A stretch of DNA of 64,000 bases, from positions 3,648,001 to 3,712,000 of the forward strand of contig CM000208.1 of NCBI GenBank assembly GCA_000002445.1, written 5' to 3'. How positions within the stretch are numbered: position 1 is the first letter of the stretch; every line of letters starts with the position of its first letter. Below are positions 25,298 to 64,000 of this stretch, in pieces. Both the position numbers and the translations under genes were made by a program. The notes beneath the pieces were generated by a model, which was given only the letters and a program-made list of their open reading frames with translations, had not been told where the DNA came from and made no database searches. This DNA is from Trypanosoma brucei. Lineage: Eukaryota.

Positions 25298-26296
25298 AAA
25301 ACAAAAGAAGAGCCAGAGGAAAGGAGAGTAGTAAACAAGCGGTGGTACTGCTGTTGAAATCCCAATACTGATATATACAAGAAAAACAACAACATTATTA
25401 TTATTATTATTAGTTGTGAAAACAACAACAACAACATCAACAACACCAACAGCAGTAATCCACCCAAATAGCCAAGTCAGGGAGTTAAGAAAATTAGAAC
25501 CGTGCCAGGAAAGACAAAAGAGAACAAAACTGAGCAAATCAAAACAAAACAAAAAAGGCCGAGAAAACATACCTGAGGGGCGAAATTAGAAGGCAGAGCG
25601 GCTAAGCGGTAACGTTAAAAGTGAAAATAAGAAAAAGGAGAACAAAGCGGAATAGCGAATAAAGTAATTATCGAAGAAAGTGACGGCTGAGGTGCGAGGA
25701 GGATTTAATCGAACAAAAATAGGGTAAAGAAAAAAAAATTAAAATAAAATAACAGAAAACACGTGCCTAAAGGGGGGAAAGGTCAACAAGAGTAGGGGAG
25801 AAAGGAACAAAGAACAGAGGGAGTGGTGCGGGGTGAGCGTGCGAAAAAAAAAGGGAATTAAAAAAAAAAAGCTGTTTTTTTAAAAAAAAAATAAAAAAAA
25901 TAAAATAGAATAGAGCTGGAGCACACCTGTGTGTGTGGGGGGTCGCGTAGGGAAGCTATTGCTTGCTGCTGAAGCAACGTAAGCGGGTGGACAGGACATC
26001 AGACACCAACTGTCAGCACTGATTTTTGGGGTTTTGTGTAAGTTCGTGTGTTTGTTTCGTTGCCAAGTTGCTAGGACATAAGCGGAGACGTACACAAACA
26101 TACAAGAAGCTGGAAAAGTTTTTATCGTTGGAGAGAGTACCCGTCAGGCAAAAAAAAAAAGAAGAAAGGTCACGAAGAAAAAAAAGAAGAAAACACAACG
26201 TACACAAACGTTCGGATACTTTGATACAATCATAAATACAATACATTTATTTATTTACTGAAGAACCCCTGTCGTATAGTAAACACACGGGAAAAA

Positions 26297-33650: not shown

Positions 33651-33993
33651 CTTTCTTTCCTCTTTTCTTTTTTTTTTGTTTTTTGCTGTTTCCGCTTCTA
33701 CAGAATTTGAAATGCGAAACTGTTCATTGGATGGAAGTATCCACACGAAGGGAAGGAGGGAGGGAGGAGGAGGGGAGAGAGAGATCTCATGCGGCGGAAG
33801 CATCTGCTACTTTCCGCTACTGCTGTTGGTCGTGGTGTTTTTTTTTTTTCGTTAGTATAAATTTTAACTTGCTTGCTTGCTTGTTTATTTCATCTATCCC
33901 CTTTTGTAAACCGCGATTTGGAGTAGCACCGTTGAGTATCTGTTAAGCAACACGGGAAGCAAAACGATAGGAGAGTGGAACAAAGAAGGGAAA

Positions 33994-35811
33994 ATGACAC
34001 GCATGCGAGTGGACGCTAAGCTGCTCTTGAAAAGCGAAGATGACTTCCGACGCCTGTTGGAGCTGCTGCGGCCATTCCATTTACGCACGTGGAAGTATGA
34101 AGATTTTTACTTTGATACACCTAACTTCCTTTTGATGGCGAAGGACGTGCAGCTTCGGCTTCGTGTGCCTTTTAAGTCTTCCGACGGTAAAGATGAGAAG
34201 TTGGCAGGCGCTCAGGGCTCGAATATGCTTTGCCATGTTTCTCTCACTCTCAAGACTAACAGTTCGGTCGATGTCGGTGGACAAACTGCTGGCATTTTTG
34301 AAATGTTTCCGTTTACACCGAAAGATGTTGATGACATGCTGCAGGAAGATTCATTGGTTAGCGTGTTGAAGAATCGTAGCAGCGATGAACCTGCTAAGAC
34401 GGTTTTGGAATATCTAACAAGGGCTTCTGAGGAATATGGCGAGGAGTTGGTACTGACGCGCTTTGCCAGTTTTGAGACAACTCGAAGGCAATACAAGTTT
34501 GTGCCACATCTTGGCTTTGGTAGCGCACACAGTTCCGACAAAGATGTTGCATCGGAAAAGAATAAATCAGACCCACCACGCCTTTATGTGGATGAAGTAC
34601 CAATGGGTGATTTCAAATCTTATGAAGTAGAAGTGCAAGGTGTTACTGATCCACTCGCAGACGTCTGTCAAGATTTGATGGATTACCTGAACGAGAAAGG
34701 CATAGAATTTACCCACAGCTTATCTGGAAAGCTGAATCGCTTCATGACCCGCACCTTGGAGCTTGAAGAAATGAAGGAAGAATCCCAGTGTGTACGTCTC
34801 CGCATCAAGGGAAACAAGGGTTATGAAGAGGTATGTAGATGGCAAAACGAGGAGAATGAGATCAGTCTCGATCCGATTCCAAAGCGCGGGGCTCCACCTG
34901 TAGATAACGATAAGCCTACCTTTGGAGTGACGCAAATGGCATCTTCCTTGTTAGGGTTGGGACCACTTACTTCACAGGCTTCCCGAATGACACATTCGCA
35001 GAGCGTACGATTAAAGAGAATTCGAGAGGGCAATCATGGTGACGAAGAGTATTTTGAAAACTATTTTTTCGATGATCGCCCCAATGGAACCTTGGCAGCT
35101 AAAAAGTATACACTACGGTTGAGATGTTGCAACCCCCCTACCGCCTTCAGCCTCGAGCTTCGGAAAGAAAAATGGAGCGCTGGTGGTGTGAAGGGCTACG
35201 AGCGGAGACGCGCGTACATATCCGGTGATGTAGCTCGACTTATGCTCCGTGACCCTAATAAATTTTTGAATTCACTATCTTCTCAGAGTAGTCTTGGTCA
35301 TTTGCTACGACGGGACATGGGACTGCAGAAGCTAACCATCGTGGGTTACTGTAAAACGCATCGCATCACATATAATGGTAAGATTATCGAGAGAAGAATG
35401 GTGGAAGACTCCCAGAGAACCCGGGACGGTAACGCGGGAAAGGTGGCGGCACGACCACCCGGTGTGGAATTCACTCTTTTTCATGGACCGTCTAGCGCGG
35501 GATGTAGAGGTGAATTTTCCATCCAGTTAAACCGCATCATGGTTGATACCGGTAGTGATCCTGTGAAAGTCGCAAAAAGGGCATCAGAGGAACGTTGTTG
35601 CTCCATTTTTAACCCCCGTGGCTGCTCTCCCTTCCCGCGGGAACCATCAGAGACGGAATCGTATGAAGTGAAGTTGGCTGGACTTCCTGAAGGTTTGGCT
35701 GCTACAGCAGAGGACTGGCTGGTTTCTCAGCTTCACCAGCGCCAAGTGCAGTGGGAGGTAGTTATGTCTGCTGGCATGGGGCAGTATCATCCTTCCTTGG
35801 CTGCAGCGTAA
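33994..35811 (+). CDS. Tandem CYTH-domain (triphosphate tunnel metalloenzyme family) protein
   Basis: The N-terminal region WKYEDFYFDTPNFLLMAKDVQLRLRV matches the CYTH core, as in thiamine triphosphatase ([24 protein letters not shown]). A second copy EEYFENYFFDDRPNGTLAAKKYTLRLRC lies ~350 aa downstream. The canonical N-terminal ExExK is replaced by RVDAK. Confidence 0.65.
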   Translation: MTRMRVDAKLLLKSEDDFRRLLELLRPFHLRTWKYEDFYFDTPNFLLMAKDVQLRLRVPFKSSDGKDEKLAGAQGSNMLCHVSLTLKTNSSVDVGGQTAGIFEMFPFTPKDVDDMLQEDSLVSVLKNRSSDEPAKTVLEYLTRASEEYGEELVLTRFASFETTRRQYKFVPHLGFGSAHSSDKDVASEKNKSDPPRLYVDEVPMGDFKSYEVEVQGVTDPLADVCQDLMDYLNEKGIEFTHSLSGKLNRFMTRTLELEEMKEESQCVRLRIKGNKGYEEVCRWQNEENEISLDPIPKRGAPPVDNDKPTFGVTQMASSLLGLGPLTSQASRMTHSQSVRLKRIREGNHGDEEYFENYFFDDRPNGTLAAKKYTLRLRCCNPPTAFSLELRKEKWSAGGVKGYERRRAYISGDVARLMLRDPNKFLNSLSSQSSLGHLLRRDMGLQKLTIVGYCKTHRITYNGKIIERRMVEDSQRTRDGNAGKVAARPPGVEFTLFHGPSSAGCRGEFSIQLNRIMVDTGSDPVKVAKRASEERCCSIFNPRGCSPFPREPSETESYEVKLAGLPEGLAATAEDWLVSQLHQRQVQWEVVMSAGMGQYHPSLAAA

Positions 35812-35905: not shown

Positions 35906-36002
35906 ATATATATATATATATATATATATATACGTGTGTGCATAATGGGTTTAGCGCATTCGTTCCGTTCCATCTTCTTTTCCCCTCTTGACGACTAGAT
36001 AA

Positions 36003-36040
<38 letters not shown>

Positions 36041-36127
36041 GTGTGTGCATAATGGGTTTAGCGCATTCGTTCCGTTCCATCTTCTTTTCCCCTCTTGACG
36101 ACTAGATAAGAATATATATATATATAT
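35906..36127. repeat. Tandem duplication of a ~107-bp unit, each copy = (TA)12-17 + 72-bp unique segment
   Basis: CGTGTGTGCATAATGGGTTTAGCGCATTCGTTCCGTTCCATCTTCTTTTCCCCTCTTGACGACTAGATAAGAA occurs identically at 35933-36005 and 36040-36112. Each copy is preceded by (TA)n and a third (TA)n follows. It lies ~100 nt 3' of the CYTH gene stop. Confidence 0.95.
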
Positions 36128-44115: not shown

Positions 44116-46500
44116 ATGGCGCTCTCGCTTGTAGTTGGGTTAGCCAGCGATGCGCTGGAGGGCAGACATAACCATGAGAAACGTTTCGAGGCGTTGCGCG
44201 CACAACTCGGTGGAAGCTCCAGTTGGCGTCAGCAGCAATGTGTCGAAGGTGTTTGTGGTACATTTACTCTGGATGTCCCAATTACTGAAGCGGATGTGGA
44301 CCGGTGGGGAACTCTTCTCAGCGAAAGCGCCCCGCCGCCGGCTCCCCCGAATGCCGCTTTTGCTGGAGGTGGTTTTGTTGACGTTGCAGCATTGTTGGCG
44401 ATGGATAATGAGGGAGACCAGCAGCAGGCGGTGCATAAGCTCGCCCCAATGAAGATGTTTGATCCCAACCAGGTGATTAGACCGGCTATGACAAAAGTGC
44501 TTATGCACCGTCGCAAGTGGCTTCCGTACCGGCAGCGCTTGACCGTTTATCAGTGCCGTACCTCAATCATTGATGCGGTTCTCCGAAACTCAGTAGTGCT
44601 CCTTACCGCCCCACCGGGGAGCGGATGTACCCTACAGCTCCCGCAGATCATATGGGAAACAGAGGTGTTTAAGACAAAGCGCCTCATTATTGTTTGTCCC
44701 ACAACTCTCACGGTTCAACGGACCGTGCAACGGCTGCGAGAGGAACGTGGCGAAGAAGCAACGACGACGACAGTGGGTGAGTGCACTCCAATGTGCTATG
44801 GGGTAACCCCGGGTACGCAGATTGTCGTTACGACTCCGGAAATGTTTGTGCGACAGTTGCTATGTGACCCAATACTCCTTCATGTTGGTTGCGTTATATT
44901 TAATGACATTCACATACGTTCTCCAATAACGGAGTTTTCCCTCTCACTTCTTCGTAGCATGTTGCGGACGCGGGACGAGTGTGGCGTGGGACGACTTGGT
45001 AGTGCGCCGCGTGTTGTGGTTTGCTGTCCTGACGACGCGGTTTCTAATACCATTGCAGAGTACTTTGGAGCTGACCACAGTATGCAGCTGAACCTCCAAC
45101 AGGTGCTTCAACGGGATGTCAAGACGGGGGCAGCCGATGCACTGCGAAGCAGCGGCTCGTACGCATCACCGGTTGTACTCTACCTTGAAGAAACTATGCA
45201 GTGGCTCACAAAGTGCGAGGAGGAGGGAAGCTTTTTGTGTCGTGACCCTGGAGAGGAACTCCGGTGCTATGTGGAAAACATTGGAGTTGTTGCAAAAATA
45301 ATGGCCATGGAAAATGCGGATTTCATGTCAGATGAAAAATTTCGCTCCCACTGGTGCCCTCTCATAGTAAACGCAATTCAGCAACATAGTTTAGCGGAGC
45401 GTAAGGAGCGTGCGACCTTGCTAGCGGAAAATAAGGAAGGGAAGCATCAAGAACTTCGGCAGGGTCACACGGTAGTGGTTGTTGTCGCACCCAACCCTCA
45501 AGTAGTGGCAACTATTGCCCATGCATTGCGCCAGGTGAATGACCAACAGAGGGAGGGGAAAGAAATGGCTCCTTCCATTACTGTTGAAGTATTGCGGGAA
45601 TGCACCACCTCTGATGAATTGCGTCTTCTTTTACGAGAAGGCGGTACGGCAGTGGAGGGCGGTGATCGTTTAGTGTTAGTGGCCACTCCTATTGTGGCAC
45701 AAACTGCGCTTCCACCGTCACTGTCAGTGGGCCTCGTGATTGACTGTGCCCGCCGCTCTTGTGCCACATATAACCCAAATGTTGACACTGATGTATTTTC
45801 CACTTCGTATAGTTACATACAGGAATTGCGGCAACGACGTTCAATTGCCCGTGTGTGTGTGGATAATTCAGGCAAGAAGGAGGAGGAGAGTGGCGTCCCA
45901 GCCCCCATGGTACTGCAGCTAATACCGAAATCTATCCTACACAGCGCCCAACACCGACGTGTGAGCTCTGATCCTGCACACCATTCCATTTTCCACTTAC
46001 CTTGGGTGGATTATGTGCATATATATCACCTGCTGCAAGCCCATGAAGAGGCCTTGTGTTGCCGTGGTCCGTCATCAGCATCCGCCATAGGCAGTTCTCA
46101 CACTGGAAATCTATTGTCACGGAATGTACCCCAACTCGTGTCATCTGCCTTTATCGGTGTTGCTTCACTATCCGCTAGCCGTTATGAGCATCTTAAACGT
46201 ATCTTCATTGCTGTAGAAAATCATTTGGTTCGCCTAGGACACTTGCAGAGACCAAGTGAGGAGCAGTTTGTACCTCGACTTCTGCCACTGGGCGTGGTCA
46301 CGACGTGCTTCGCCCTCCCTATTCCGGTGCTTCGGCTGTTGGTGTGGTCGCGATTGTATGGATGTGTTGTTCCCGCGAGCGTCGTAGCGGCGATTTGGAT
46401 GCTGGGTGATATTTTTTGCACTGTTCAGCACGATGATGAAGCTGCTGAACTTATGCGAGAGTCACGTGTATTTTTTCACATGGCTCCGGGAGCGATGTAG
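44116..46500 (+). CDS. DEAH/RHA-family helicase-like protein with degenerate catalytic motifs (probable pseudohelicase)
   Basis: Collinear matches to DEAH-box motifs, each with catalytic residues replaced. Motif I is APPGSGCTLQLPQ (GETGSGKTTQxPQ, K->C). Motif Ia is CPTTLTVQRTVQRL (CTQPRRVAAmSVAkRV). Motif Ib is TPEMFVRQ (TDGMLLRE). Motif II is DPILLHVGCVIFNDIHIRSP (DPLLskYSvIilDEAHERtl). Motif III is CCPDDAVSNTIAEYF (MSATLDAEKFSeYF). The stop at 46498-46500 directly abuts the next ORF. Confidence 0.75.
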   Translation: MALSLVVGLASDALEGRHNHEKRFEALRAQLGGSSSWRQQQCVEGVCGTFTLDVPITEADVDRWGTLLSESAPPPAPPNAAFAGGGFVDVAALLAMDNEGDQQQAVHKLAPMKMFDPNQVIRPAMTKVLMHRRKWLPYRQRLTVYQCRTSIIDAVLRNSVVLLTAPPGSGCTLQLPQIIWETEVFKTKRLIIVCPTTLTVQRTVQRLREERGEEATTTTVGECTPMCYGVTPGTQIVVTTPEMFVRQLLCDPILLHVGCVIFNDIHIRSPITEFSLSLLRSMLRTRDECGVGRLGSAPRVVVCCPDDAVSNTIAEYFGADHSMQLNLQQVLQRDVKTGAADALRSSGSYASPVVLYLEETMQWLTKCEEEGSFLCRDPGEELRCYVENIGVVAKIMAMENADFMSDEKFRSHWCPLIVNAIQQHSLAERKERATLLAENKEGKHQELRQGHTVVVVVAPNPQVVATIAHALRQVNDQQREGKEMAPSITVEVLRECTTSDELRLLLREGGTAVEGGDRLVLVATPIVAQTALPPSLSVGLVIDCARRSCATYNPNVDTDVFSTSYSYIQELRQRRSIARVCVDNSGKKEEESGVPAPMVLQLIPKSILHSAQHRRVSSDPAHHSIFHLPWVDYVHIYHLLQAHEEALCCRGPSSASAIGSSHTGNLLSRNVPQLVSSAFIGVASLSASRYEHLKRIFIAVENHLVRLGHLQRPSEEQFVPRLLPLGVVTTCFALPIPVLRLLVWSRLYGCVVPASVVAAIWMLGDIFCTVQHDDEAAELMRESRVFFHMAPGAM

Positions 46501-49424
46501 TGAGTGCGTTTCATGCTTATCGTATGTGGCTTTCCCTACGTGGTACCGCGGGGGAGTCCGGGGATGCCTTCGGGAGTGAGAGTTTTGTTTCGAGTGAAAC
46601 ACTAATCAAGGTGGAAAAGCAACAACTGATGTTATTACATGTGCTTGAGGTAACTGGGGTCATTGCACCTCTCGTATCCCAAGAAATTCGCTTAACTGAG
46701 AGTGGCAAGAGTTCCCCCGCTTCAGTAGGGAAATCACAGGGCGACATTTTCGATACTTTAGCTTCCACTATTCTTGCGATGCCAGAGGCGGCGTTGCTGG
46801 AGGGCAATGGTCTACTTCAGTGCGTAACTGCAGCGCTCTATCCTCAGTATGCCACACCTCTCGATGATGGATCTGCTTTGGCGTTGCGTTTTGTGGAAGG
46901 CGCCGCAAAACCTTCAACCAATGATGGAAACGATGGGTCTGAAGGGGATGCTCAACATGCGGTACCACAACTTGCATTCTTCTCCGAGCTATCCGTGATG
47001 AGCGTGGAGGAGGTATACAAGAGCCACGCGGGAAAGCCGTTTCTATATCTTCATCGTGATGGTGAGCCTGAGGGGAGGATCGCATTGTTGAAAGGAGCTA
47101 CACCCCTATGCATGGACGCGGCGGTTGTTTCATGCGGTGAGCGGTCGGACCATCCGAAGCAACAGGCATCACGGTGCCGGGGGTGGACGTCTGTTATAAC
47201 AAACGCGTGGCGGTTAACGAAATGTGCGCGACGGCTCCCACCCGCAGCGCAGTTACCGCCCGTATCCATACCGTTTAAGTTGTATGACACCATTCAAGCC
47301 CCTCAGGTTATCGTCCAGCTTGACGGAGTGATGTCGCTGTCCATGAGGGCCACAACTGCCAAATGGTTACACCAACTTCGGGAGCATACAAGTTGTAGAC
47401 TACGCGCTCTCGTTGCAGATAAAACATGGCCTGCAGTCCAACAAGAACTCTCCGGTCTTCATGAGGCATGGGAATGGTGGTCAAGACGTGTAGCCAACTC
47501 GCAGGCATGGCTACGAGAGGAGCGGGCTTCCCGTCCTGCCTCTAATGCGAGTTCGGCAGGACATTTAGCTCAGGATAATGATTTAAGAGAGTTATTGTGT
47601 CCATACTATCAGTATAGCTCGAATCCAGGTCGACCTCCAATGGTCGTTCCTCCTAAAAGGCGGCAGGGTGCTGGCGCACCCCTGAATGCATCTTGTTCGA
47701 CCACCGCCGTAGCAGGGACAGATCAACCAACAGCATACAATGGGAAAATGCCCGATCCCGTCATGAGCAATAACATTCAACATTCAGCGAAGAGTATTGC
47801 CAAGGCTCGAAGTCGTGAACAGGAAGCCAAATTCCTGAAGATGTACCCTGACTTGTTTGCCTTCCTCGACCCGGAACATGAGTTCCATGGTTATTACTTA
47901 CATGTGCTACGTCGCGAAGCCCCCGACCTGGAGGTTCTTGGTGATAACTTAGAGGAGCTTGAGAAATTCCTTCAGGATCTTGAAGAGGAGGTTAGGGAAG
48001 AGGTTGGTGCACAGAGTGCTATGGCAACATACGATGGGCGGAACGGTGACCAGTCGTGTTTTGCTGGTGATTATCAAGCGGAGGCTCCCAGAACAGATGC
48101 CTCTTACCAGTTCCAGGAGGTGAATGCTGACGAGTACATGGCCTCCTACGGAATGCAAGTGGAGAGTTCGGTGGAACATGCAACACGTCCACCGGCGTTG
48201 TTCAGAACACAAGATGTGACTCAACCATCTTCTTCCTCTTTGGATAAAGCGGAGAGTGTCCCGGCCGCAGCCTCTTTTTTTACGCAAGGTCCAGCAGTGG
48301 AGAACTCCACATGTGGTATTTTAGGTGATGGCTTCGTGGAGGAGCCTGTAGCGGGCTTGGCCCCACCTGTCGATAACGGTCCGTCATCCGAGAACTTCGC
48401 GTTTACGTCAGGACAGACAACATCGTCGACTTCGATGGCGGGAGCCAAAACAGAAGCAACGGCGTACGGGTTTACCGGGGTCGGTGCGTCAGGCGACGGT
48501 GCTGTTGGGCGTGCACCAACTTTGATGGAGCAGCTGTTGGCGATGAAGGCTGGCGGTGCCTTGGGCCCGGTGCAGCCTGCAGTTTCTGTTCCTCAGGACG
48601 CGATTCCCCAAGACATGGCACCTTCTGCGTCTGCCCAAATCCCTGGTTCTTGGCTTGGAGGTACCGTTGCACCGCCTGTCATCAACTCAGGTTTTGAACT
48701 GCCTTCTTCTTCTGCCATGACCGCCACGTCTTCTTCTCAGACGGCTGCCGCGAACGCTTCCCTCACGAGGGACCTTCTCGAGGTTATGGGAGTCATTCCA
48801 CCTCCACCCCCAGTTAATCCGCTAACAATTGCCCCACCGCCACTTCCTGCGGAAGCCCTTGCAAACCGTCCCCCTTCCGTGTTGGTGTATCCTCTGCCAC
48901 CGCGCGAATACGGAAACATTCCGCTTATTCTTGCCAAGGCAATGGGTGAAACAATGGGAATTAAAGTAGGACCAACACGTCTCGTGGGAAATGTTGGTCG
49001 TATCGATGTTCCGAACCACAAAGTAGAGGCGCGTGCATTGGCACTTAAGTCCTTCACATGCGTGGGCAAAAAGGTGTACATCTTCAAGAATGACCGCATT
49101 GTGGATGGGCCGCGGAATGCAGTGGTTAATAATGCTCCCATTCAACAGCGCAACTCCCGCTTAAATGCCCCACGAGATCTAGTTGGTGAGGGAAATATGT
49201 ATGAACAACCTGATGGTGCCGAGAATGAGGGCTTCGCGCAGTCGCTGAGGAAACTTGTTGAAGACGGCCGGCCCCCACCGATGGCTCATGTACCGGAGAA
49301 TCATTTTGCGGCGAACGCAAGGGCCTCAGCAAAGAAGTCAATCAATCCACAACTAATTGGAGTGTTGTTGGATTCAGATGACGACGGAGATGAGGAATCG
49401 TCAGAAAGATCTGCATCAGTGTAG
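46500..49424 (+). CDS. SURP-module-containing proline-rich protein; probably the C-terminal continuation of the 44116-46500 gene across a frameshift
   Basis: This frame is open from 46449. The ORF tracker starts at a GTG at 46500, and the first ATG is at 46524. A SURP/SWAP module is present: NIQHSAKSIAKARSREQEAKFLKMYPDLFAFLDPEHEFHGYYLHVLRRE (consensus I..TA.FVA..G..FE......NpkFsFL.p.dpyHaYY.hKl). Pro-rich segments follow (PPPPPVNPLTIAPPPLP). Leaving 0-24 nt to the upstream stop codon is incompatible with separate trans-spliced genes. Confidence 0.6.
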   Translation: MSAFHAYRMWLSLRGTAGESGDAFGSESFVSSETLIKVEKQQLMLLHVLEVTGVIAPLVSQEIRLTESGKSSPASVGKSQGDIFDTLASTILAMPEAALLEGNGLLQCVTAALYPQYATPLDDGSALALRFVEGAAKPSTNDGNDGSEGDAQHAVPQLAFFSELSVMSVEEVYKSHAGKPFLYLHRDGEPEGRIALLKGATPLCMDAAVVSCGERSDHPKQQASRCRGWTSVITNAWRLTKCARRLPPAAQLPPVSIPFKLYDTIQAPQVIVQLDGVMSLSMRATTAKWLHQLREHTSCRLRALVADKTWPAVQQELSGLHEAWEWWSRRVANSQAWLREERASRPASNASSAGHLAQDNDLRELLCPYYQYSSNPGRPPMVVPPKRRQGAGAPLNASCSTTAVAGTDQPTAYNGKMPDPVMSNNIQHSAKSIAKARSREQEAKFLKMYPDLFAFLDPEHEFHGYYLHVLRREAPDLEVLGDNLEELEKFLQDLEEEVREEVGAQSAMATYDGRNGDQSCFAGDYQAEAPRTDASYQFQEVNADEYMASYGMQVESSVEHATRPPALFRTQDVTQPSSSSLDKAESVPAAASFFTQGPAVENSTCGILGDGFVEEPVAGLAPPVDNGPSSENFAFTSGQTTSSTSMAGAKTEATAYGFTGVGASGDGAVGRAPTLMEQLLAMKAGGALGPVQPAVSVPQDAIPQDMAPSASAQIPGSWLGGTVAPPVINSGFELPSSSAMTATSSSQTAAANASLTRDLLEVMGVIPPPPPVNPLTIAPPPLPAEALANRPPSVLVYPLPPREYGNIPLILAKAMGETMGIKVGPTRLVGNVGRIDVPNHKVEARALALKSFTCVGKKVYIFKNDRIVDGPRNAVVNNAPIQQRNSRLNAPRDLVGEGNMYEQPDGAENEGFAQSLRKLVEDGRPPPMAHVPENHFAANARASAKKSINPQLIGVLLDSDDDGDEESSERSASV

Positions 49425-54384: not shown

Positions 54385-57300
54385 ATGTGTGACCGTCTAA
54401 ATACAATGTCTATCATTTCTCCCAGATCAGCAGCTCCCAGCTCGGGGAGGAGACTTTCGGCGTCACGTCGGGGTCAAGATCGAGAATATCGTCGGACGAA
54501 CTCCTCGCGCTCCGTTTTATCCCAAAGGCAGAAACTTAGTGATTCCATTCACGGCACTGGAAATGCCATGGATGTATACGTGCGTGTACGACCATTTAGT
54601 GAGCGAGAATTATCCATGAACGCGCCGCAGCATAGCACGGTGCGCATTGAAGTAGACAATCCGTGCGTTCTTACGCTTTTGGACCCACAGAAGGACTTCA
54701 AACCCCGCCAATCCTACAGTTTTACACGCTGCTTTTGGTCCGTTCTTGAGAGCGACAGTGCAGACTGTGGGAACGCTGGAGATATATTAAGCGCTATAGG
54801 AACTTATATTGACCGACGCGTAGCCTCTCCTCGCTCGAACCGCCAGCGTCAAGCAACTGGAAATTCGTCCCGTTCTCACTCTGCACGTGGAAAGGGAAGC
54901 GGTGACTTCTCCGGATTTGTTGAAACATCGGGATCCAATGCGGCGTTGCTAACTGTCAACACTGTTCCGCATCCCCCGTATAGCTCACAGGCAGATGTCT
55001 ATAACGAGGTTGGTAGGCCTCTATTAGAGAATTCATTGTTAGGATACAATGGCTGTATCTTTGCATACGGGCAAACAGGTAGCGGCAAGACCTTTACTAT
55101 GCTGGGCTACACGCCAAAAGCCAGTGATTTCCGAAGGTCCAGTCGTCGACAGCAAATTTCTATCGATGAAGCTGATGGGGAGCATTTGTTTAATTCATCT
55201 AGTCCCAGACGGACGGCAACTCCACTGACCAGTAATCGTCTTCGCCGGACCTCGTGGAAAAGCAATATGGTTAGCCCACGAGACACGCGGAGTCTCAGTG
55301 GTACATTCCGGGTGGAAGCAGAGCAGTCTGGTGCCGGGGACGACAACAAGCCGTCGGTTGATCCGAATGAACTACAGGGGATTATTCCCCGCATTACCAG
55401 GGATCTTTTTCAAGGGTTACATGAGGTGCGTCATCGAGAAGCCTCTCATTCTTTTCGTGTGGAGTTGGAGTTCTATGAAATATACAATGAGAAGGTGTAT
55501 GACCTTATAAACCCGCAAAAGGATGCTGACCTAAAGATTCGCCAGAACCCACTCACAGGTCCCTACGTAGAGGGACTTTCTTCATTAGTCGTTGTTAACG
55601 AGGTACAGGTGGCTGAAGTAATTAATAGGGGAAGCGTTGATCGTCACACCTCTTGCACTAGAATGAATGATCGCAGCAGCCGCAGTCACGCCATCATTAC
55701 AATTAATATTCTGCAGCTTTCGCTCGACGGGAAGAACAGCAGCTGTCAAAAGCGTAGTAAGCTCAATCTGGTTGATCTTGCTGGATCGGAGCGTATTGGC
55801 GCGACTGGGGTGGAGGGTTTGCACTTCAAGGAATCCACGAAGATTAACTTGTCACTCACTACGTTGGGTCGAGTCATTGATTGTCTAGCTGAGCTTTCGC
55901 AGTCAAAGGTTCCTTCTGTGACTGCTCCCTATCGCGACTCCAACCTCACATGGCTACTGATGGATTCGTTGGGCGGAAACAGCAAGACATCGATGGTGGC
56001 TACTATTTCACCCCACTGTAGCAATTTTGAGGAGATGCGACAGACAATTCGTTACGCCTCTCGTGCCAGGCAGATCGTCAACGTTGCTGTAGTGAATGAA
56101 GACCCACATGTGCGTCAGATCAATATGCTCACCAATGAAGTAGAGAACCTCAAGAAGGTAATTCGCGAAAATGGAATGAACGAGTTTACCCGCGACTACG
56201 TAATTGACTTACGGCAACGCTACAGCGACTTAGAGAAGCGTTGTGTGGAACAGCAGTTGTCCCTGGTGCAACTACGTGCGGAAATAGAGGAGAATACAAC
56301 TTACAACCGCCAAGATGAACCCACTCCAGTGTCTGGAAGAGCCACGCGAGTGTTCCGCGCGGATTTGAATGGACGACGGACGCGAAACAATGTAAACGGA
56401 GACGAGGCAGATGCCTTAACTGTTTCGCCTCGAGTACCGGAATCAAGGAGATCTGCAGCTGCTGCGTGGCCCACCCCTCCCAAATCGTCCCCGTGCAATA
56501 ACACTTCAAGGAACTCCAATGCTGAGGTCACGGCGGAACTGCGAACTCAAATAAAAAGACTCAAAGACGAGCTGAATACGGTGCGAGTGGACAGTTGCCT
56601 CCAGCAGTATCACGTCAAGGAATTTGCGCTTTCCTACACAACTGCCGTTTCTAACGCCATTTGTGATACTGTCATAAAGAAGAACAAGGAATTTTTGGAT
56701 CAAGCAACTCTGTTGTTTGGCACTCGAGCTGGCAGGAGGGACCCGCACCTCCGTCCTCTAAGCAGGACTCCGCGTCGGGATGTAGATGATTCCAAGAAAG
56801 TTCCCGATTGCAGGTCCTGGCGGCCCGCTGATAAGGCTGAGAATGATAGTCGTTGCGTGACGCCAAGCCGCGCCGGAAAGGCTAAACGGGGGGACCCCGA
56901 TGCTGCGTTGGCGATTGAATGCGCCAAATACCAGACAGAGCTGCAGCGGGTTCGCGATGAACTGGGCTCAGCGATTGTGGAAAGTCAACGGACTTCGGAG
57001 GTTCTTAGGCGGCTTCAGTACGAAAGAGAAGATCTGAAGCGGAAGAATGAGGAAATAAGCTCCAAATACGAGGAAAAAGACAGAGAAGTTCGCCAGTTAA
57101 AACGTCTCTTAGAGAGTGGAGCAAGGAGCCGTGAAGAGGGTGAAGGTGGCGTTGGGAGCGCCACCGATTGGAAAAAACAAGCTGATGAAGAGTTGAACTG
57201 CTTACGCGCTGCATTGCAAAAAATATGCGAGGAACACAGTCGTGTGGAGCAACAGCACCAAGCAGAAATTCATAGCCTTATTAGCCAGCAAGACCGATTG

Positions 57301-57672
57301 TTTAATATTAGCAGCAGCCTTTTGGCCAACTGGGAAAGTCGTTCCGCCGCTCTAGATTCCTCCTTTGCACAGCTTCGAGCTCTCCTGCACAATAAGGAAT
57401 ATCAGAGCCAGCACCAACGATTACGAGACAGCATGTTAGAGCGCAGAAATTACTCTGCAGAAGTTGCCGCCGTGGATGAGCGCAAACGGCGTGACACGCA
57501 GCGGCTCCGTGAAATTATGGAACAGCTAAAGCAGAACCAGAAGGATAGTAAGGCGAGCATTCAAAAATTTGAAGAGGACGTCAGGCAACACTTCTCTGGT
57601 GTTAGAACAGCTAGGGAAGGTAACGGAGGTGAATCTTCATTCGCTAATCCGCACTCTTCACGGCCACGCTGA
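54385..57672 (+). CDS. Kinesin (N-terminal motor, C-terminal coiled coil), kinetoplastid-type with loop insertions
   Basis: Motor motifs are present: VYVRVRPFSERE, P-loop AYGQTGSGKTFTMLG, switch I NDRSSRSHAI, switch II LVDLAGSER, and neck VNEDPHVRQI. The C-terminal half (aa ~600-1095) is heptad-rich with E/K/R/L periodicity. Confidence 0.85.
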   Translation: MCDRLNTMSIISPRSAAPSSGRRLSASRRGQDREYRRTNSSRSVLSQRQKLSDSIHGTGNAMDVYVRVRPFSERELSMNAPQHSTVRIEVDNPCVLTLLDPQKDFKPRQSYSFTRCFWSVLESDSADCGNAGDILSAIGTYIDRRVASPRSNRQRQATGNSSRSHSARGKGSGDFSGFVETSGSNAALLTVNTVPHPPYSSQADVYNEVGRPLLENSLLGYNGCIFAYGQTGSGKTFTMLGYTPKASDFRRSSRRQQISIDEADGEHLFNSSSPRRTATPLTSNRLRRTSWKSNMVSPRDTRSLSGTFRVEAEQSGAGDDNKPSVDPNELQGIIPRITRDLFQGLHEVRHREASHSFRVELEFYEIYNEKVYDLINPQKDADLKIRQNPLTGPYVEGLSSLVVVNEVQVAEVINRGSVDRHTSCTRMNDRSSRSHAIITINILQLSLDGKNSSCQKRSKLNLVDLAGSERIGATGVEGLHFKESTKINLSLTTLGRVIDCLAELSQSKVPSVTAPYRDSNLTWLLMDSLGGNSKTSMVATISPHCSNFEEMRQTIRYASRARQIVNVAVVNEDPHVRQINMLTNEVENLKKVIRENGMNEFTRDYVIDLRQRYSDLEKRCVEQQLSLVQLRAEIEENTTYNRQDEPTPVSGRATRVFRADLNGRRTRNNVNGDEADALTVSPRVPESRRSAAAAWPTPPKSSPCNNTSRNSNAEVTAELRTQIKRLKDELNTVRVDSCLQQYHVKEFALSYTTAVSNAICDTVIKKNKEFLDQATLLFGTRAGRRDPHLRPLSRTPRRDVDDSKKVPDCRSWRPADKAENDSRCVTPSRAGKAKRGDPDAALAIECAKYQTELQRVRDELGSAIVESQRTSEVLRRLQYEREDLKRKNEEISSKYEEKDREVRQLKRLLESGARSREEGEGGVGSATDWKKQADEELNCLRAALQKICEEHSRVEQQHQAEIHSLISQQDRLFNISSSLLANWESRSAALDSSFAQLRALLHNKEYQSQHQRLRDSMLERRNYSAEVAAVDERKRRDTQRLREIMEQLKQNQKDSKASIQKFEEDVRQHFSGVRTAREGNGGESSFANPHSSRPR
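55663..56125 (+). repeat. Paralogous identity tract (kinesin 1 copy) shared with 61084-61550
   Basis: Runs of 27-65 nt are perfectly identical to the second kinesin, e.g. aatgaatgatcgcagcagccgcagtcacgccatc, agtaagctcaatctggttgatcttgctggatcggagcgtattggcgc, tccaacctcacatggctactgatggattcgttgggcggaaacagcaagacatcgatggtggctac. Confidence 0.9.
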
Positions 57673-60156
57673 GGGCCTCCACCCCGCAGTAGGGTTAGTA
57701 CCTTAAAATGAGGAAAGGACACAATGAGAAGGGGTGCTGCATATAAAAGGGAAATAATGAGCGGGTAATGGCCGTGTGTGGACATTAGAAGAGGGAGGGA
57801 GGGTAATTCGTTCGAATACAACGAATTGGTGACCCCCCACACACATATGTTAGCTTTGGTGACTGACTGTTGGCCCACTTGCCCTTCAAACTGTTTCATT
57901 CGGGTCCCTATGTACGTGGATGTGACAAAGCCCACGAAGGTAATTGCTGATGACTTGCACTACGCTTCATTGGATATCTTTGCTGTCTGTCATCTGTGTT
58001 TTGGTCGTTTTTTTTGTTTCTTTTCACGGTCACACAGGAGAAATAGGCGAAATTACTTTCGATATTCCGTGAAGTCCTATCTAGAGCAGGGGAGTAAGGG
58101 AAACCTGTATAAAATATGCCAAGTAGGCAGCAGAGGAACTTGGAGTGAGTCCATGATATCGACGAATACGGCCCCGTCAGTGAGGGAAGTAAAGGCGAAA
58201 AGTGAAAACAAATATTTCTGTATCAGTGGTCGAGTAGCGTCGCCTCGGTACGGGAGTAAAGATTTTGGGAGCTTCCTCCTTTGAGTAGTGTCTGTGTTTT
58301 CATTTTGCTCTTTTTTTGATCTTTCCTCACAGCACCTCTCCTACTGCGTTGTTTCGTGTTTTACTCTAGTCCCTGCCTTTTCTTCTGTTTTTGTTTCTTT
58401 TTCTTTTTAAGTTTTCTCGGTGCGTACTTTTTGCTGTTGATTTGTGTGTGATTGTGCAAAGTCGATAGTGTTTCGGTAATTCGCTTTGTCATTTCAACTT
58501 TCGTTACTCCCCTCCCCACTCCACCTCGCATCGCTCTTCTTTCTGTTTCTACCGTTATTGCCATTCTTGTGGTTCCGTATGGTTGGAAACTGCGCCATGT
58601 TGCGCTTTCTGTAAAGTAGAGGAATGAGGGAATGGGTATATCTAGTGCAGCAATGGTGTGGTGATGAGTGGCACTACCGTTATATGGAAATTCCGTCCCG
58701 AAGAAAGTGACCTCCGTTTTTTTTTGTTTTCACACCCTCTTTTTCCTTTATATCTCGTCTTCCGTTGCTGCCGCAACGAGACTTGTTCATCTTCACTGGC
58801 ACTCTTTCATCCCTCTCCCTCCCGTTTCCTCTCTCTGTGTTTTGCCAGTGTTATGTCTCAATCGATATCCAAAACAAGCAGGCAAAGGGTATGTTTTTTT
58901 TTTATTTTTCAGCCGAATGAGCAAAGAAGCAAGTGGGGGCAGAAGGGGATAAACGACAAAAAAGCAACTGAGGGAGAATTCGCCCGTGTGTGAATAACAG
59001 TGACTCCAAAAGAATGGGTTTTTTGATTAAATAAATAAAAAAAAGAGCAATCACGCATATGTATTTATGTACGCATGTGTGCTTGTGTGCTTGTGTGCGC
59101 TTATTTAATGAAAAGTAATTTTACGATTATCATTCAAAAGCACAATAACGCGCCGTAGCTTTTACGGAAGGGAACCAGATGTTTCAGAAGTAGAGCAGGA
59201 AGGGAGAATTGTGGCTTTCGTTTGGGGAGGAAGATGAAGCGGCGACAGGTCCAGCGTTAATGATTTTATTGTATTTGTTTATCTATTTACTTATTTTTCA
59301 ATTTACTTTTATTTCTTCTTTCGTATAATATTCACATGGCCATCATCATTTTTTTTTTCGAAAACTTGCTTTTCTTTCCTCTCCTTTTCTCTCCTCCACT
59401 TCCACTTCCATTTCCACTTCCCAGACTTTCCGTATGTTCTTCGTTGTTGTTCTCGTGATGCCCTTCAGCTTCTTACCATCTCTTTCCTCTCTCTCCCCCT
59501 CCAGGTGCACACCCACGCGATTTAAAGGCACACCTCTGCCAAAGCGGGTTGAGTGGTAGCAGCGATACAAGAAACTGAGTAAAGGAAAATAAACAAATGA
59601 GGAAATGGGTGATTACAAATGCATCGGTGCCTGTAGGAATGGACAAGAAGATGGGTGTTGCATGAATGAGAGAAGGGGAAGGGAGTAACGGAGTAAGGAA
59701 GTCGTTGTTTGTGAATTGGGATGTGAACTGTTCCACTTGCCGTTTCTCTGGTGATCCTTTTTTCTTTGTTTTGTGTGAGGAAATAGAATATTTTTCTGCT
59801 GTGGCATTTTCATATGTATTTTGCACGCTTTTTTGCGTGTATGTACATATTTGTATTCATTTACCCATATATATACGACAGCTCTGAGGTATGAAGGGAC
59901 GCGCTTGCATTACTGATATTCACCTTTTTGTATTTAATCATGACATCGGCTGTGATCACGTCAGTGCCAACCCTGACGATTATTATTATTATTATTTATT
60001 ATTTACTACTTCTTGTTTTAATCACTACCCCACAGAAGACTGGTGAGAACAAGGGAAGAAAGAGAAGGTTAAGGTGAGGGACGAGGAGCGGTTATAAGGA
60101 AAGACTAATTAAGGTGAACGGTAAGGGAATTGCGTGGGATTTAGACTGCGGCAGCA

Positions 60157-63100
60157 ATGGTGAGATTAGATCCCAGCGCATCCACGGCGTCATCCATGAC
60201 CACAACCACAGCGACTTCTGCCCTTGATGTTTCATTGACTGAACAGGATACATCACGCAGCAACGGGGGTGCGCAGGACAGCGCGATGCGTGTGTATGTT
60301 CGCATTCGGCCTTTCACCGCGAGTGAACTCTTGGAAAATGGGGAGCGGCCCAACCGGACTATCGCTCTCGACGCGAGAGATGGCCACATAAAAATCATGG
60401 ACCCCTCACGGAACTTCACGACGCGCCTCACGTACGTTTTTGAGCGCTGCTTTGACTCGGCCGAGGCCGGACCAGGAGCGGACCAGGAGGAAGTATACAC
60501 GCATGTTGGTCGTACAGTTCTAAACAACACGGTGGATGGTTACAACGGTTGCATTTTGGCGTATGGACAAACGGGGACTGGTAAAACATACACCATGCTG
60601 GGGCCAAGGGACGTAGTGACTAGTGGGAGGTTATATCGGGAAGAGCTGGCACAGCAAAGCTCCTCTTTTTCTAGTATCACTAAGTTGAAGCTATGCTCGC
60701 CCTCACCCTCCTGCTCAGGCCAGATGAAAGGCATAGATGAGAGTGCCTTTCTGGAACTCTCATTGGGTGGAGATAGTTTTTCGACGACGGAAGAAGGTAT
60801 TATTCCTCGCTTTGCACGTGACCTCTTCAACTCCCTTCGACAAAAGCAGAGAGAAGACAGTTCGTACTCCTACCGCGTGGAAATGGAGTTCTATGAAATT
60901 TATAACGAAAAAGTCTTTGATCTCATCTCAGGTGGGCACTCTACAAATGACCTTCGGGTAAGGCACCAGACCGTACGGGGTGTTTTTGTGGAAGGTCTGG
61001 ACCGGAAGCCAATAGCAGCAGAGGAAGATTTATTGTTCTGGATGTACCGGGGAAGCATTGAGCGTCATACCGCTTCCACTAAAATGAATGATCGCAGCAG
61101 CCGCAGTCACGCCATCCTTTCCATTCACGTTGTACAAATGACACTTGATGAAAATAATAATACTAACCGCGTCAGTAGTAAGCTCAATCTGGTTGATCTT
61201 GCTGGATCGGAGCGTATTGGCGCTAGTGGGGTGGAGGGTTTGCACTTCAAGGAATCCACGAAGATTAACTTGTCGCTCACGGCACTGGGTCGAGTCATTG
61301 ATTGTCTAGCTGATGCTTCAACGGGTAAACCGAGCGCATTCTGTCCGTACCGTGAATCCAACCTCACATGGCTACTGATGGATTCGTTGGGCGGAAACAG
61401 CAAGACATCGATGGTGGCTACCGTTTCCCCGTGCGTGGAGCACTACGAAGTGACATGTCAAACACTGCGTTATGCCTCTCGTGCGAAGCAGATCGTCAAC
61501 GTTGCCGTCGTGAATGAAGACCCACAGGTACGCCAGATCAAGAAGCTCACTGCCGAAGTGTCGAGACTAAAGCAGCTACTGAACAATCAGTCTATTTGTG
61601 ACTATAGCAATGAAGAAGTTGAACGGTTGCGCCAGCGAGTGGTGCAACTTCAGCAGGAGGCGGTTGAACGTGACTTCATGTTGGAGACGTTTCGCGAAGA
61701 GTTGAACGACAAAACTAGTTTGATGAATCACCATCGCAACGGAAGTGTCACCCTTTGCAAACACAACGCTAATGGTAAACAACACCAACAGGGGGGAGAG
61801 ACGATGACCAAGGATGAGGTTAACAGCCCACACCTGATGCAAAGGACGAAGGGAAAGGAGTCAACAGGGGGTGCAGCAACCGGTGATTGTGGGGGAAAAC
61901 AGAGTTCTCGGTCAGTAAATCCGTATCTCAATGCCAGGACGTTACAGCAGCTGAAGTACCTTCGAATTGAGGCCGATCAAGACTACGGTACACTGATAGC
62001 TACGCTGGCGCGGTGTGCATTCGACGCTACAATGAATTACGAATGCACGTTGCAGAAAAACATCATGATGATAAACTCTCATAGTCATGCCTTGCGAGAA
62101 AACGTGCAAAAGATGGAGTCCAAGGAATGGTTGGTACTTGCTTCCATTGGAGATAGGCTTCTTTCCGAGTTCGCTAAGGCATGCGGAAAGCATGCGAGCA
62201 CCCCAAGGCACCACGAAACGGTGAAACCCAAGGGACTGAAGACCCCTGAAGTTGAAGTCCAGGATAAGGATAGGGATAAGGCACGAATGGAAATAAACAG
62301 GCTGCGAGAGCGGCTGTATGATGCCATGGTGGAAAACGATGGGCTCAAAGAGCGTTGTGAGGCGTTGGAAAAGGAAGCGCACAACTTCTCCAAAATGGAA
62401 AGAACTCTAAAGCAAAAGTTAGCTACTCTGCAGGCTGAACTAGATGGGGCCGGTCCTAAGGTGATTGCATGGGCAACAAACACCATGAAGGCGGAACCAG
62501 GGTTGACACCGAGAACTGCTGTGAATACCACCAGGGAAAATCACGACTGTCCCAAAGAGGGGCGGAGGATGTCACCTCTACTCCCCAGCGCGAGATGTGT
62601 CCAAGCACGCAAGGTAAAACACAGTCCCCGTCAAAAGGAGGTTGGAACCACTCGTCGTGTTGCAGAAAAAAATGGGACCGAAGCGCAGCTTGAAAACAGT
62701 GTATGTTCCCTCTCTGTTCCAGTGTTGAACCTCCGTCAGATCAGCGCAGCAGCTTTTCTCAGGTCTGCGATTGACTCTCACCACGATGCGCTGCTTGATC
62801 TTCTGATGGATAAGTTCCGCTTGGTCGGCAACCTGTACGAACAATATGCTAAGAGCTTTCTCGGAAAAAACCCTTTAACTGGGAGCAACGGAAAAAGCGA
62901 ATGCCCTGAAAAAGAGCTGACGCTTGCAGAAGAACGATTGCCAAGCAAAAAAGTCCCAAAAAGGTCTGTCGAGGTGCAGAAAAAAAGTAAGGTCGCGAGT
63001 GATATGATTTCATCCAGGGGGCGTGGTCGGGGCGGAGTTTTAACGGGAGATGATGCGCTATGCAGGGAGTCAACCGTTACCTTGCACAGTCCCAGGGGCG

Positions 63101-64000
63101 CAGAGAATGCTAAGGGGTTGCAACGACGCTGTCATCAAAAAGCGCAAGCTACGACAGTCCGAAAGACATCCAGAAGAACTCTTGGAAGCAGCAGCGATAC
63201 CTTTTTACCTGACTGCGAGGAAGAAGTCACCTTTTTGAAGGAACAGTTTACCAGGAGGGAATCTGGGATTAAAAAGGAGCATCAGTCGGTTGTCAGGGAG
63301 CTGCAAAACAACTTAGCTGAGGCAGTGAAAAGAGCGGCCCAGGAATATAAACAACTCTTGGATCAATCTAGCAACGAAAAGAAGCAGTTGAACGAGCAAC
63401 TTGCCAAGTATGGATCAATTGCGGCTGCTGCTGAGAAGACTAAGGAAAGTGTCTCCGAACAAACGCGTTTGTTCAGGGAGCAATGTAGCGGACGAACTGC
63501 AATTGAGATCGAACAGATGGAGGTTTGGGCATCCACAGTGGCGAGCAGCGTAGCGAGTATTTACCGTCTACGAAAGGAACAGGAAAGTGTTGCTGCCGCA
63601 AAGGAACGGCAACAACTTATTAATCAGGCGGCCTGCGACAAAGCGGAACTAACGTGCTCCCTTCGCCACAGAACTGAAGTGCTTTTGGAGTGGGTATCCG
63701 GGCGTGAAGTTCTCCTCTGCGAAGAAGAAAGGACTCGTGCCCACCTTGTTCTTCGTTTCCGCGAGCAGGGAATTGCGTCTGGATGTTGCGCGGAGCTTTC
63801 CACCATGCTTGTTGAGAGCCACAAGTTACTTACCGAACATTGTGTAGTTGAACACCAGGTGTTTATAGAAGGAGTTACGCCCATCTGCAATGCGTTCCTG
63901 GGCGCCAGTAATGCCCTAGCAAAGGAAAAGAGCCATGTTATGCAGTTGCAAGGTCAGGTGCGCTCTGCAGTAATGGGTCAATGCCGACAACAGTTACTGC
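60157..64000 (+). CDS. Kinesin paralogue (N-terminal motor + coiled coil), 3'-truncated by the window end
   Basis: ATG at 60157. Motor motifs are present: MRVYVRIRPFTASE, AYGQTGTGKTYTMLG, NDRSSRSHAI, LVDLAGSER, VNEDPQVRQI. The reading frame stays open to position 64000, so it is absent from the complete-ORF track. It shares nucleotide-identical tracts with the upstream kinesin. Confidence 0.85.
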   Translation, partial: MVRLDPSASTASSMTTTTATSALDVSLTEQDTSRSNGGAQDSAMRVYVRIRPFTASELLENGERPNRTIALDARDGHIKIMDPSRNFTTRLTYVFERCFDSAEAGPGADQEEVYTHVGRTVLNNTVDGYNGCILAYGQTGTGKTYTMLGPRDVVTSGRLYREELAQQSSSFSSITKLKLCSPSPSCSGQMKGIDESAFLELSLGGDSFSTTEEGIIPRFARDLFNSLRQKQREDSSYSYRVEMEFYEIYNEKVFDLISGGHSTNDLRVRHQTVRGVFVEGLDRKPIAAEEDLLFWMYRGSIERHTASTKMNDRSSRSHAILSIHVVQMTLDENNNTNRVSSKLNLVDLAGSERIGASGVEGLHFKESTKINLSLTALGRVIDCLADASTGKPSAFCPYRESNLTWLLMDSLGGNSKTSMVATVSPCVEHYEVTCQTLRYASRAKQIVNVAVVNEDPQVRQIKKLTAEVSRLKQLLNNQSICDYSNEEVERLRQRVVQLQQEAVERDFMLETFREELNDKTSLMNHHRNGSVTLCKHNANGKQHQQGGETMTKDEVNSPHLMQRTKGKESTGGAATGDCGGKQSSRSVNPYLNARTLQQLKYLRIEADQDYGTLIATLARCAFDATMNYECTLQKNIMMINSHSHALRENVQKMESKEWLVLASIGDRLLSEFAKACGKHASTPRHHETVKPKGLKTPEVEVQDKDRDKARMEINRLRERLYDAMVENDGLKERCEALEKEAHNFSKMERTLKQKLATLQAELDGAGPKVIAWATNTMKAEPGLTPRTAVNTTRENHDCPKEGRRMSPLLPSARCVQARKVKHSPRQKEVGTTRRVAEKNGTEAQLENSVCSLSVPVLNLRQISAAAFLRSAIDSHHDALLDLLMDKFRLVGNLYEQYAKSFLGKNPLTGSNGKSECPEKELTLAEERLPSKKVPKRSVEVQKKSKVASDMISSRGRGRGGVLTGDDALCRESTVTLHSPRGAENAKGLQRRCHQKAQATTVRKTSRRTLGSSSDTFLPDCEEEVTFLKEQFTRRESGIKKEHQSVVRELQNNLAEAVKRAAQEYKQLLDQSSNEKKQLNEQLAKYGSIAAAAEKTKESVSEQTRLFREQCSGRTAIEIEQMEVWASTVASSVASIYRLRKEQESVAAAKERQQLINQAACDKAELTCSLRHRTEVLLEWVSGREVLLCEEERTRAHLVLRFREQGIASGCCAELSTMLVESHKLLTEHCVVEHQVFIEGVTPICNAFLGASNALAKEKSHVMQLQGQVRSAVMGQCRQQLL
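61084..61550 (+). repeat. Paralogous identity tract (kinesin 2 copy) shared with 55663-56125
   Basis: Same identical runs as listed for 55663-56125, interleaved with divergent segments. Confidence 0.9.

Follow-up and report, generated by a model that had tools for sequence, protein, structure and literature searches.

Short identical tracts in the motor domains of an ancient tandem kinesin pair of Trypanosoma brucei, probably left by repeated gene conversion

The DNA analysed here is a stretch of 64,000 nucleotides of Trypanosoma brucei TREU927 (assembly GCA_000002445.1, contig CM000208.1, positions 3,648,001 to 3,712,000 of the forward strand; referred to below as the window), in which two kinesin genes, the upstream paralogue K1 and the downstream paralogue K2, lie in tandem and in direct orientation. 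Tracts of identical or near-identical DNA alternate with diverged segments in the C-terminal half of their motor domains, and with a probability that we put at about 0.9, four patches there would have been homogenised by repeated, short-tract, non-reciprocal gene conversion between the two loci. Putative partial gene conversion has been described in 21 of 47 tandem arrays of T. brucei (Jackson 2007, BMC Evol Biol 7:54, PMC1855330). Those arrays are like K1/K2 in that chimaeric tandem copies of the same species were recognised by GENECONV-type tests and by phylogenetic incongruence with orthologues; they are mostly near-identical dosage arrays, however, whereas K1 and K2 are ancient, functionally distinct and saturated save for patches of 28-100 nt. 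The main text of that survey makes no mention of kinesins.

Break-induced conversion in T. brucei, which needs RAD51 and BRCA2, leaves patches that average ~46 bp and have their junctions in short shared stretches; it does not alter the donor and copes with ~20% mismatch (PMC13233330, Nature 2026). Recombination efficiency in this species drops steeply under ~50 bp of homology, and mismatches arising in recombination are fixed by short-patch repair (PMC1904282). The mosaics of variant surface glycoprotein (VSG) genes share with K1/K2 their short, templated, non-reciprocal patches, and the ~46 bp size fits tracts of 28-100 nt (PMC13233330). In VSG mosaics, silent donors serve to diversify an antigen gene that is expressed and subject to immune selection, whereas the outcome in K1/K2 is homogenised core genes of the housekeeping type; the comparison implies neither a source of breaks nor selection for diversity at the kinesin locus, and the VSG pathway would apply there by analogy. 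Parker et al. in 1995 reportedly described gene conversion between tandemly arranged phosphoglycerate kinase genes in African trypanosomes; paralogues with different roles are reported to have been partly homogenised there, in T. brucei or T. congolense, and the resemblance serves as a lead only.

In Leishmania, FAZ7A and FAZ7B are adjacent paralogues of the 'Tryp2' kinesin clade that differ in localisation and function (PMC8244899). They share locus and clade with K1/K2 but stem from a Leishmania-specific duplication of FAZ7 and have one long tract, where K1/K2 has several short ones; the paper that describes them makes no mention of gene conversion. In L. martiniquensis, the FAZ7 paralogues LSCM1_06258 and LSCM1_06259 (L006:10001-13390 and L006:20170-23390) are 100% identical over ~1000 nt of the motor, with flanks that are 40-60% identical and a sharp downstream boundary in alpha6. 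Unless the two copies were merged in assembly, a separate conversion tract, far longer than those of K1/K2, seems to be present here at the homologous locus. No report of gene conversion for the K1/K2 pair was found in the literature search, and the pair is a fresh example of a mechanism already documented in trypanosomes.

A mosaic of tracts and spacers in two kinesin motors

Both genes encode a complete motor with P-loop, switch I (SSRSH) and switch II (DLAGSE), as judged from Pfam PF00225 and alignment, and the nearest solved structures are the kinesin-3 motors of KIF13B and KIF1A (E ~1e-70). The K1 protein is 100% identical to XP_828010.1 (T. b. brucei TREU927), and XP_828011.1, from the same strain, is identical to K2 over its first 1281 aa, the portion that lies inside the window; the K2 frame is open from 60145 to the window end. 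By these identities the window belongs to chromosome 10 of TREU927. K1 is FAZ7 (Tb927.10.15390), a kinesin of the distal tip of the flagellum attachment zone (PMC4406125). The link from accession to Tb927 identifier was made by protein identity, by naming in Leishmania, whose orthologues at the syntenic locus carry the name FAZ7, and by motor coordinates, since the Pfam matches at aa 197-564 of K1 agree with the published FAZ7 motor at aa 199-564 (PMC8244899); the same paper places FAZ7 in the trypanosomatid-specific 'Tryp2' clade. The literature search found no publications on K2. The two gene starts are 5772 nt apart, in keeping with an earlier note on this DNA that had put the paralogues 5.7 kb apart, and homologous motor positions are offset by 5421 nt, or by 5418 nt past a one-codon indel in loop L12. 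No further copies of the motor sequence were found in the window.

Identical runs were located by codon-aware alignment and by direct comparison at the offset, and a repeat search recovered the same blocks independently. The resulting tracts (B1 to B4), the spacers and the partner region are listed in Table 1, in which the motor anatomy is our own assignment, taken from alignment to kinesin-3 structures and standard kinesin nomenclature.

Table 1. The kinesin pair and the tracts and spacers of its motor domains (positions in the window)
Feature	Positions	Strand	Description or evidence
K1, kinesin FAZ7, upstream paralogue	54385..57672	+	1095 aa; open reading frame and Pfam kinesin motor match, E = 2.4e-88
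K2, downstream kinesin paralogue	60157..64000	+	Runs past the window end, 1682 aa in full; Pfam kinesin motor match, E = 8.2e-95
Tract B1, switch I (NDRSSRSHA)	55662..55695	+	34 nt identical to 61083-61116
Tract B2, beta7, switch II DLAGSE, L11, alpha4	55754..55892	+	Partner 61175-61313; 95% identity over 139 nt
Unconverted spacer, loop L12 and nearby	55893..55938	+	Paralogue-specific, one-codon indel; dN 1.0, dS saturated
Tract B3, alpha5, L13, beta8 (NLTWLLMDSLGGNSKTSMVAT)	55939..56003	+	65 nt identical to 61357-61421
Unconverted spacer, N-terminal part of alpha6	56004..56055	+	Paralogue-specific; dN 0.67, dS saturated
Tract B4, alpha6 end and neck linker (QIVNVAVVNEDP)	56056..56108	+	49/53 nt identical to 61474-61526
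Partner region in K2 (copy 2) with matching tracts	61083..61526	+	Direct comparison

The earlier note had described stretches of 27-65 nt, from switch I to the neck, that are identical between the two kinesins, interleaved with diverged segments and set in genes that are otherwise highly divergent; this description, the lengths included, was borne out. Exact runs of 34, 49, 48, 28 and 65 nt were found, the three in the middle belonging to B2 (55754-55802 = 61175-61223; 55806-55853 = 61227-61274; 55865-55892 = 61286-61313), and the segment 56070-56108 of B4 holds exact runs of 18 and 17 nt. All tracts lie within 450 nt, and overall K1 versus K2 identity across 55663-56125 is 79%. Between the tracts, the segments 55705-55753, 55893-55938 and 56004-56055 are only 36-46% identical, with saturated synonymous divergence (dS), and differ in nucleotides and in protein. 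In the N-terminal motor half the protein is conserved in places but the DNA is not, with no identical run longer than 12 nt; outside the motor domain K1 and K2 are not usefully alignable. The homogenised patches correspond to switch I, to switch II with L11 and the alpha4 relay helix, to alpha5-L13-beta8, and to the end of alpha6 with the neck linker, while the unconverted spacers are the strand segment between the two switches, loop L12 and N-terminal alpha6. In the protein alignment each spacer is conserved among the orthologues of its own paralogue; the alpha6 spacer, for example, reads HCSNFEEMRQTI in K1-type and CVEHYEVTCQTL in K2-type motors, each kept among its own orthologues.

Protein constraint alone had been considered insufficient to keep such DNA identical, and the codon counts agree. 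At identical residues the same codon is used in 90 of 117 positions (0.77) within 55633-56130, versus 31 of 104 (0.30) in the N-terminal motor (Fisher p = 2e-12). From the codon usage of the window's open reading frames (ORFs), 36.6 identical codons would be expected in the former region and 35.2 in the latter; the count inside the tracts is 2.5 times the expectation, and outside them it matches. Identity confined to positions of extreme codon bias, which the earlier note had named as an observation that would speak against conversion, did not occur: tract codons are no more 'optimal' than others, and in the P-loop block (GYNGCI.AYGQTG.GKT) 19 of 22 residues are identical, yet only 3 of 18 informative codons are.

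When dS was computed in sliding windows (NG86), it was not uniformly low across the motor, as it would be after a simple recent duplication; four troughs of 0.00-0.12 stand between saturated stretches, and the entire N-terminal motor is saturated. The value is 0.00 at 55654-55698 (B1), 0.16 for the B2 block with 0.00 in its core, 0.00 for B3 in the TREU927 sliding windows and 0.46 for B4 in T. brucei. As a range, tract dS was put at 0.00-0.19, against saturation in the spacers and the N-terminal motor. Polymorphic sites of a nine-sequence alignment were permuted in a Sawyer/GENECONV-style test, in which runs of 25, 23 and 21 matching polymorphic sites each had a global p <= 1e-4 and a fourth run, of 14 sites (B1), p = 7e-4. 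Permutation of silent sites only, a conservative null, gave p = 0.007-0.035 per run, and ortholog and cross-species control pairs showed no significant runs in the permutation test. A signal of GC-biased conversion was sought and none was found, the G+C content at third codon positions (GC3) being 0.54 in tracts versus 0.50 elsewhere; this lack is neutral rather than contrary evidence.

Nearer the motor start, in a beta-strand region (54697-54756 / 60415-60471), eight consecutive conserved residues (F..R..Y..F..RCF..D) have identical codons in K1 and K2. This run was not significant in permutation (p = 0.2-0.7) and could reflect chance or what remains of an old, eroded tract.

Tracts across Trypanosoma

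The locus was compared in seven further taxa (T. b. gambiense, T. theileri, T. melophagium, T. vivax, T. cruzi, T. conorhini and T. rangeli), and T. congolense and T. equiperdum were compared as proteins. T. brucei and these seven taxa all have the genes for DEAD helicase, RNA polymerase subunit, Utp11, K1, K2 and malate dehydrogenase in the same order, a tree of the N-terminal motor resolves clean, separate K1 and K2 clades that each follow the species tree, and similarity between the flanks or untranslated regions (UTRs) of K1 and K2, sought as a sign of recent duplication, was not found. From these three observations together it follows that the K1/K2 duplication is ancient, older than the genus Trypanosoma, and that the tracts are not leftovers of a recent copy.

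Trees were built by neighbour joining for each block, and they are incongruent: the tracts group paralogues by species, whereas the N-terminal motor groups orthologues. Inside the tracts, same-species paralogues share synonymous states that differ between species. The presence and the boundaries of tracts vary between lineages, as had been anticipated for conversion that is ongoing. Homogenisation of B1 is confined to T. brucei, the pairs of other species having dS of at least 0.76 there. For B3, in contrast, dS between the paralogues lies at 0.06-0.18 in five species (T. brucei, T. cruzi, T. conorhini, T. rangeli, T. theileri) and reaches 0.49 in T. melophagium, against values between orthologues of different species that are well above 0.6 or saturated. 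A nearest-neighbour analysis of B3 over 14 sequences placed the same-species paralogue nearest in each of these five species; this grouping in several lineages shows that concerted evolution recurred independently, and B3 (alpha5-beta8) is a recurrent conversion target across Trypanosoma. The T. melophagium K2 is nearest in B3 to both T. theileri genes, with 3 differences from each, which suggests a conversion in the common ancestor of the two species that continued in T. theileri.

Homogenisation of B2 is seen in T. brucei; T. congolense shows it in its proteins, and T. conorhini has a 41-nt run there. Both paralogues of T. brucei and T. congolense have the derived ERIGASGVEGLHFKES in this tract. 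Their K1 reads ERIGA[S/T]GVEGLHFKES, as K2 does; the K1-type GAVGAEGKQFLEG is retained by T. vivax, T. cruzi and T. theileri, among others, in their K1. In the B4 tract, which is older (dS 0.46 in T. brucei), only T. brucei and T. congolense have the derived NVAVV in K1 as well as in K2, and T. theileri and T. melophagium have a tract of their own at the same position. The transfer in B2 probably ran from K2 to K1, because T. brucei K1 falls inside the K2 clade of the B2 tree, adjoining T. brucei K2; the same direction is likely for B4, in the tree of which the two T. brucei genes cluster with T. vivax K2. In B2 and B4, K2 keeps its own residues, and residues of K2 type are also found in the K1 of T. 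brucei and T. congolense, as would fit a non-reciprocal exchange; in B1 the direction depends on one residue.

Within T. brucei the two strains differ in B2. K1 of T. b. gambiense reads GCT AGT, the K2 state, where K1 of TREU927 reads GCG ACT (55803/55805), and the first two B2 runs accordingly merge into 100 nt in gambiense, versus 49 + 48 nt in TREU927.

The T. vivax pair was aligned by hand at the DNA level, and no tract and no identical run longer than 14 nt was found; T. vivax is the only species examined without a conversion tract in the pair. Its K1 (L004:3371-6750) is annotated as two ORFs of 573 and 507 aa, split by a 1-nt deletion just after switch II (GAGGGC-GGCAG), which could be a long-read homopolymer error or a real pseudogene.

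Origin of the tracts

The mosaic dS, the run tests and the species-wise grouping of paralogues all agree with the patchy gene conversion that the earlier note had proposed. A break or lesion in one copy would be mended by homologous recombination that copies from the adjacent paralogue, located either on the same chromatid or on its sister, and this repair would leave templated patches of tens of nucleotides. By analogy with break-induced conversion in T. brucei, the pathway would be RAD51/BRCA2-dependent templated repair. Patches would arise only where protein constraint had preserved enough nucleotide identity for strand invasion, and each conversion would reset perfect identity, so that the same patch became a good substrate again. 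Only the C-terminal motor half has runs of the required length, and conversion would consequently be confined to it and be self-sustaining there. The patches would end at diverged or indel-bearing, paralogue-specific segments (the inter-switch strand, L12 and N-terminal alpha6), presumably at these positions either because heteroduplex is unable to extend through them or because selection removes alleles converted there; it is possible that selection against conversion of L12 and alpha6 contributes.

Some points weigh against this account. Conversion is deduced wholly from extant sequences. The B3 tract of T. brucei is 0.80-0.83 identical to T. vivax K1 and 0.72-0.73 identical to T. vivax K2, and the transfer in B3 may have run in either direction. 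B2 and B4 of T. congolense are known from proteins alone, and may be either inherited or independently renewed. Finally, since K1 of T. b. gambiense, T. equiperdum and T. congolense has the K2-type serine, the TREU927 state in B2 is probably a later, clustered double substitution that followed conversion, and not a separate conversion.

The tracts are clustered inside 450 nt, and they could therefore stem from one or a few long conversions reaching from switch I to the neck, with the spacers restored by patchy mismatch correction or retained by selection. Short-patch mismatch repair is reported in T. brucei recombination (PMC1904282), and the L12 and N-terminal alpha6 spacers are segments conserved among their own orthologues, as would be expected of functional specificity. 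We nevertheless regard a long event as unlikely. The tracts differ in age, with dS of 0.00 in the B3 and B2 cores versus 0.46 in B4, and in distribution, with B1 in T. brucei only, B3 in most species and B2 and B4 in some lineages, and several independent events are thus the simpler explanation. The spacers, being at saturated dS, have gone unconverted for a very long time, and patches formed by break-induced conversion in T. brucei average ~46 bp (PMC13233330).

Selection, and not homology alone, might also shape which conversions are kept, the L11-alpha4, alpha5-L13-beta8 and neck-linker patches coinciding with the motor's microtubule-binding face and its mechanical element, and the L12 and N-terminal alpha6 spacers with what gives each paralogue its identity. 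This addition to the conversion account is quite improbable in our estimation. If it held, FAZ7 of T. brucei and T. congolense would be a functional chimera with its neighbour's track-binding surface, and the recurrence at alpha5-beta8 would reflect selection for matched motors, for example motors that use the same microtubules or form a heterodimer.

That selection acted on the nucleotide sequence itself (through codon preference, RNA structure or a regulatory element), with no transfer of DNA, is very hard to sustain, even though the protein motifs in which the tracts sit are the best conserved and constraint of some kind is strongest there. In the P-loop block, which is conserved to the same degree, no more than 3 of 18 codons are identical, the codon-usage expectation is exceeded 2.5-fold in the tracts only and with equal optimality, and the identity is wholly absent in T. 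vivax. Moreover, orthologues differ at many synonymous tract sites at which the paralogues within a species agree, and this sharing of species-specific synonymous states excludes nucleotide-level constraint and codon bias.

Assemblers can collapse or chimerise paralogous repeats, but an assembly that mixed paralogue reads, or a recent duplication with fast divergence outside the tracts, is scarcely credible, given that TREU927 and DAL972, T. brucei assemblies made independently of each other, both have the same tracts, that their signature is also seen in T. equiperdum and T. congolense proteins, that analogous tracts are present in the assemblies of five other species, and that K1 and K2 form separate clades genus-wide with nil flank similarity and saturated dS elsewhere.

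Consequences for FAZ7 and further features of the window

Two aspects of the pair stand out: an island of ~65 nt has lasted in most of the genus although the genes are saturated elsewhere, and the FAZ7 motor of T. brucei and T. congolense appears to be chimeric and partly K2-derived. Because of the latter, functional inference to FAZ7 of these two species from other species, or from Leishmania FAZ7B, calls for caution. Kinesin phylogenies and orthology calls that use the K1/K2 motor domain would be distorted in its C-terminal half, and RNA interference constructs, CRISPR guides or probes directed against 55662-56108 would also target the neighbouring gene. If repeated conversion is the correct reading, the locus would be a natural case, beyond VSG genes, of templated repair patches of tens of nucleotides accumulating in trypanosome core genes, and it would suggest that a small homology island can sustain conversion long after paralogues have otherwise become saturated. 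Neither of these two points alters current understanding, the process being ordinary conversion between tandem paralogues.

The ORFs of the window form a row on the + strand, as is typical of a trypanosomatid polycistron. Between K1 and K2 lies an ORF of 168 aa (57778-58284) without a Pfam match, which is probably UTR sequence and not a gene; T. b. gambiense has a gene of 124 aa called between K1 and K2, about as far downstream of K1. The upstream DEAD/DEAH helicase (44116-49424) is represented in the window by two overlapping ORFs (44116-46500 and 46500-49424) and in T. b. gambiense by a single ORF of 1769 aa. The split is due to a 1-nt homopolymer difference near 46450 (T6 in the window versus T7 in gambiense) and is either a TREU927 frameshift or an error in the reference sequence. 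Further upstream, positions 22000-44000 make up a 22-kb stretch of low G+C content (0.29-0.40, versus ~0.50 elsewhere) with only two long ORFs, at 26225-27649 (no Pfam match) and 33910-35808 (CYTH domain), and with non-coding spacers that are unusually long for a core region of T. brucei. A perfect tandem repeat with a 107-nt unit in 2.1 copies, accompanied by (AT)n, occupies 35906-36127.

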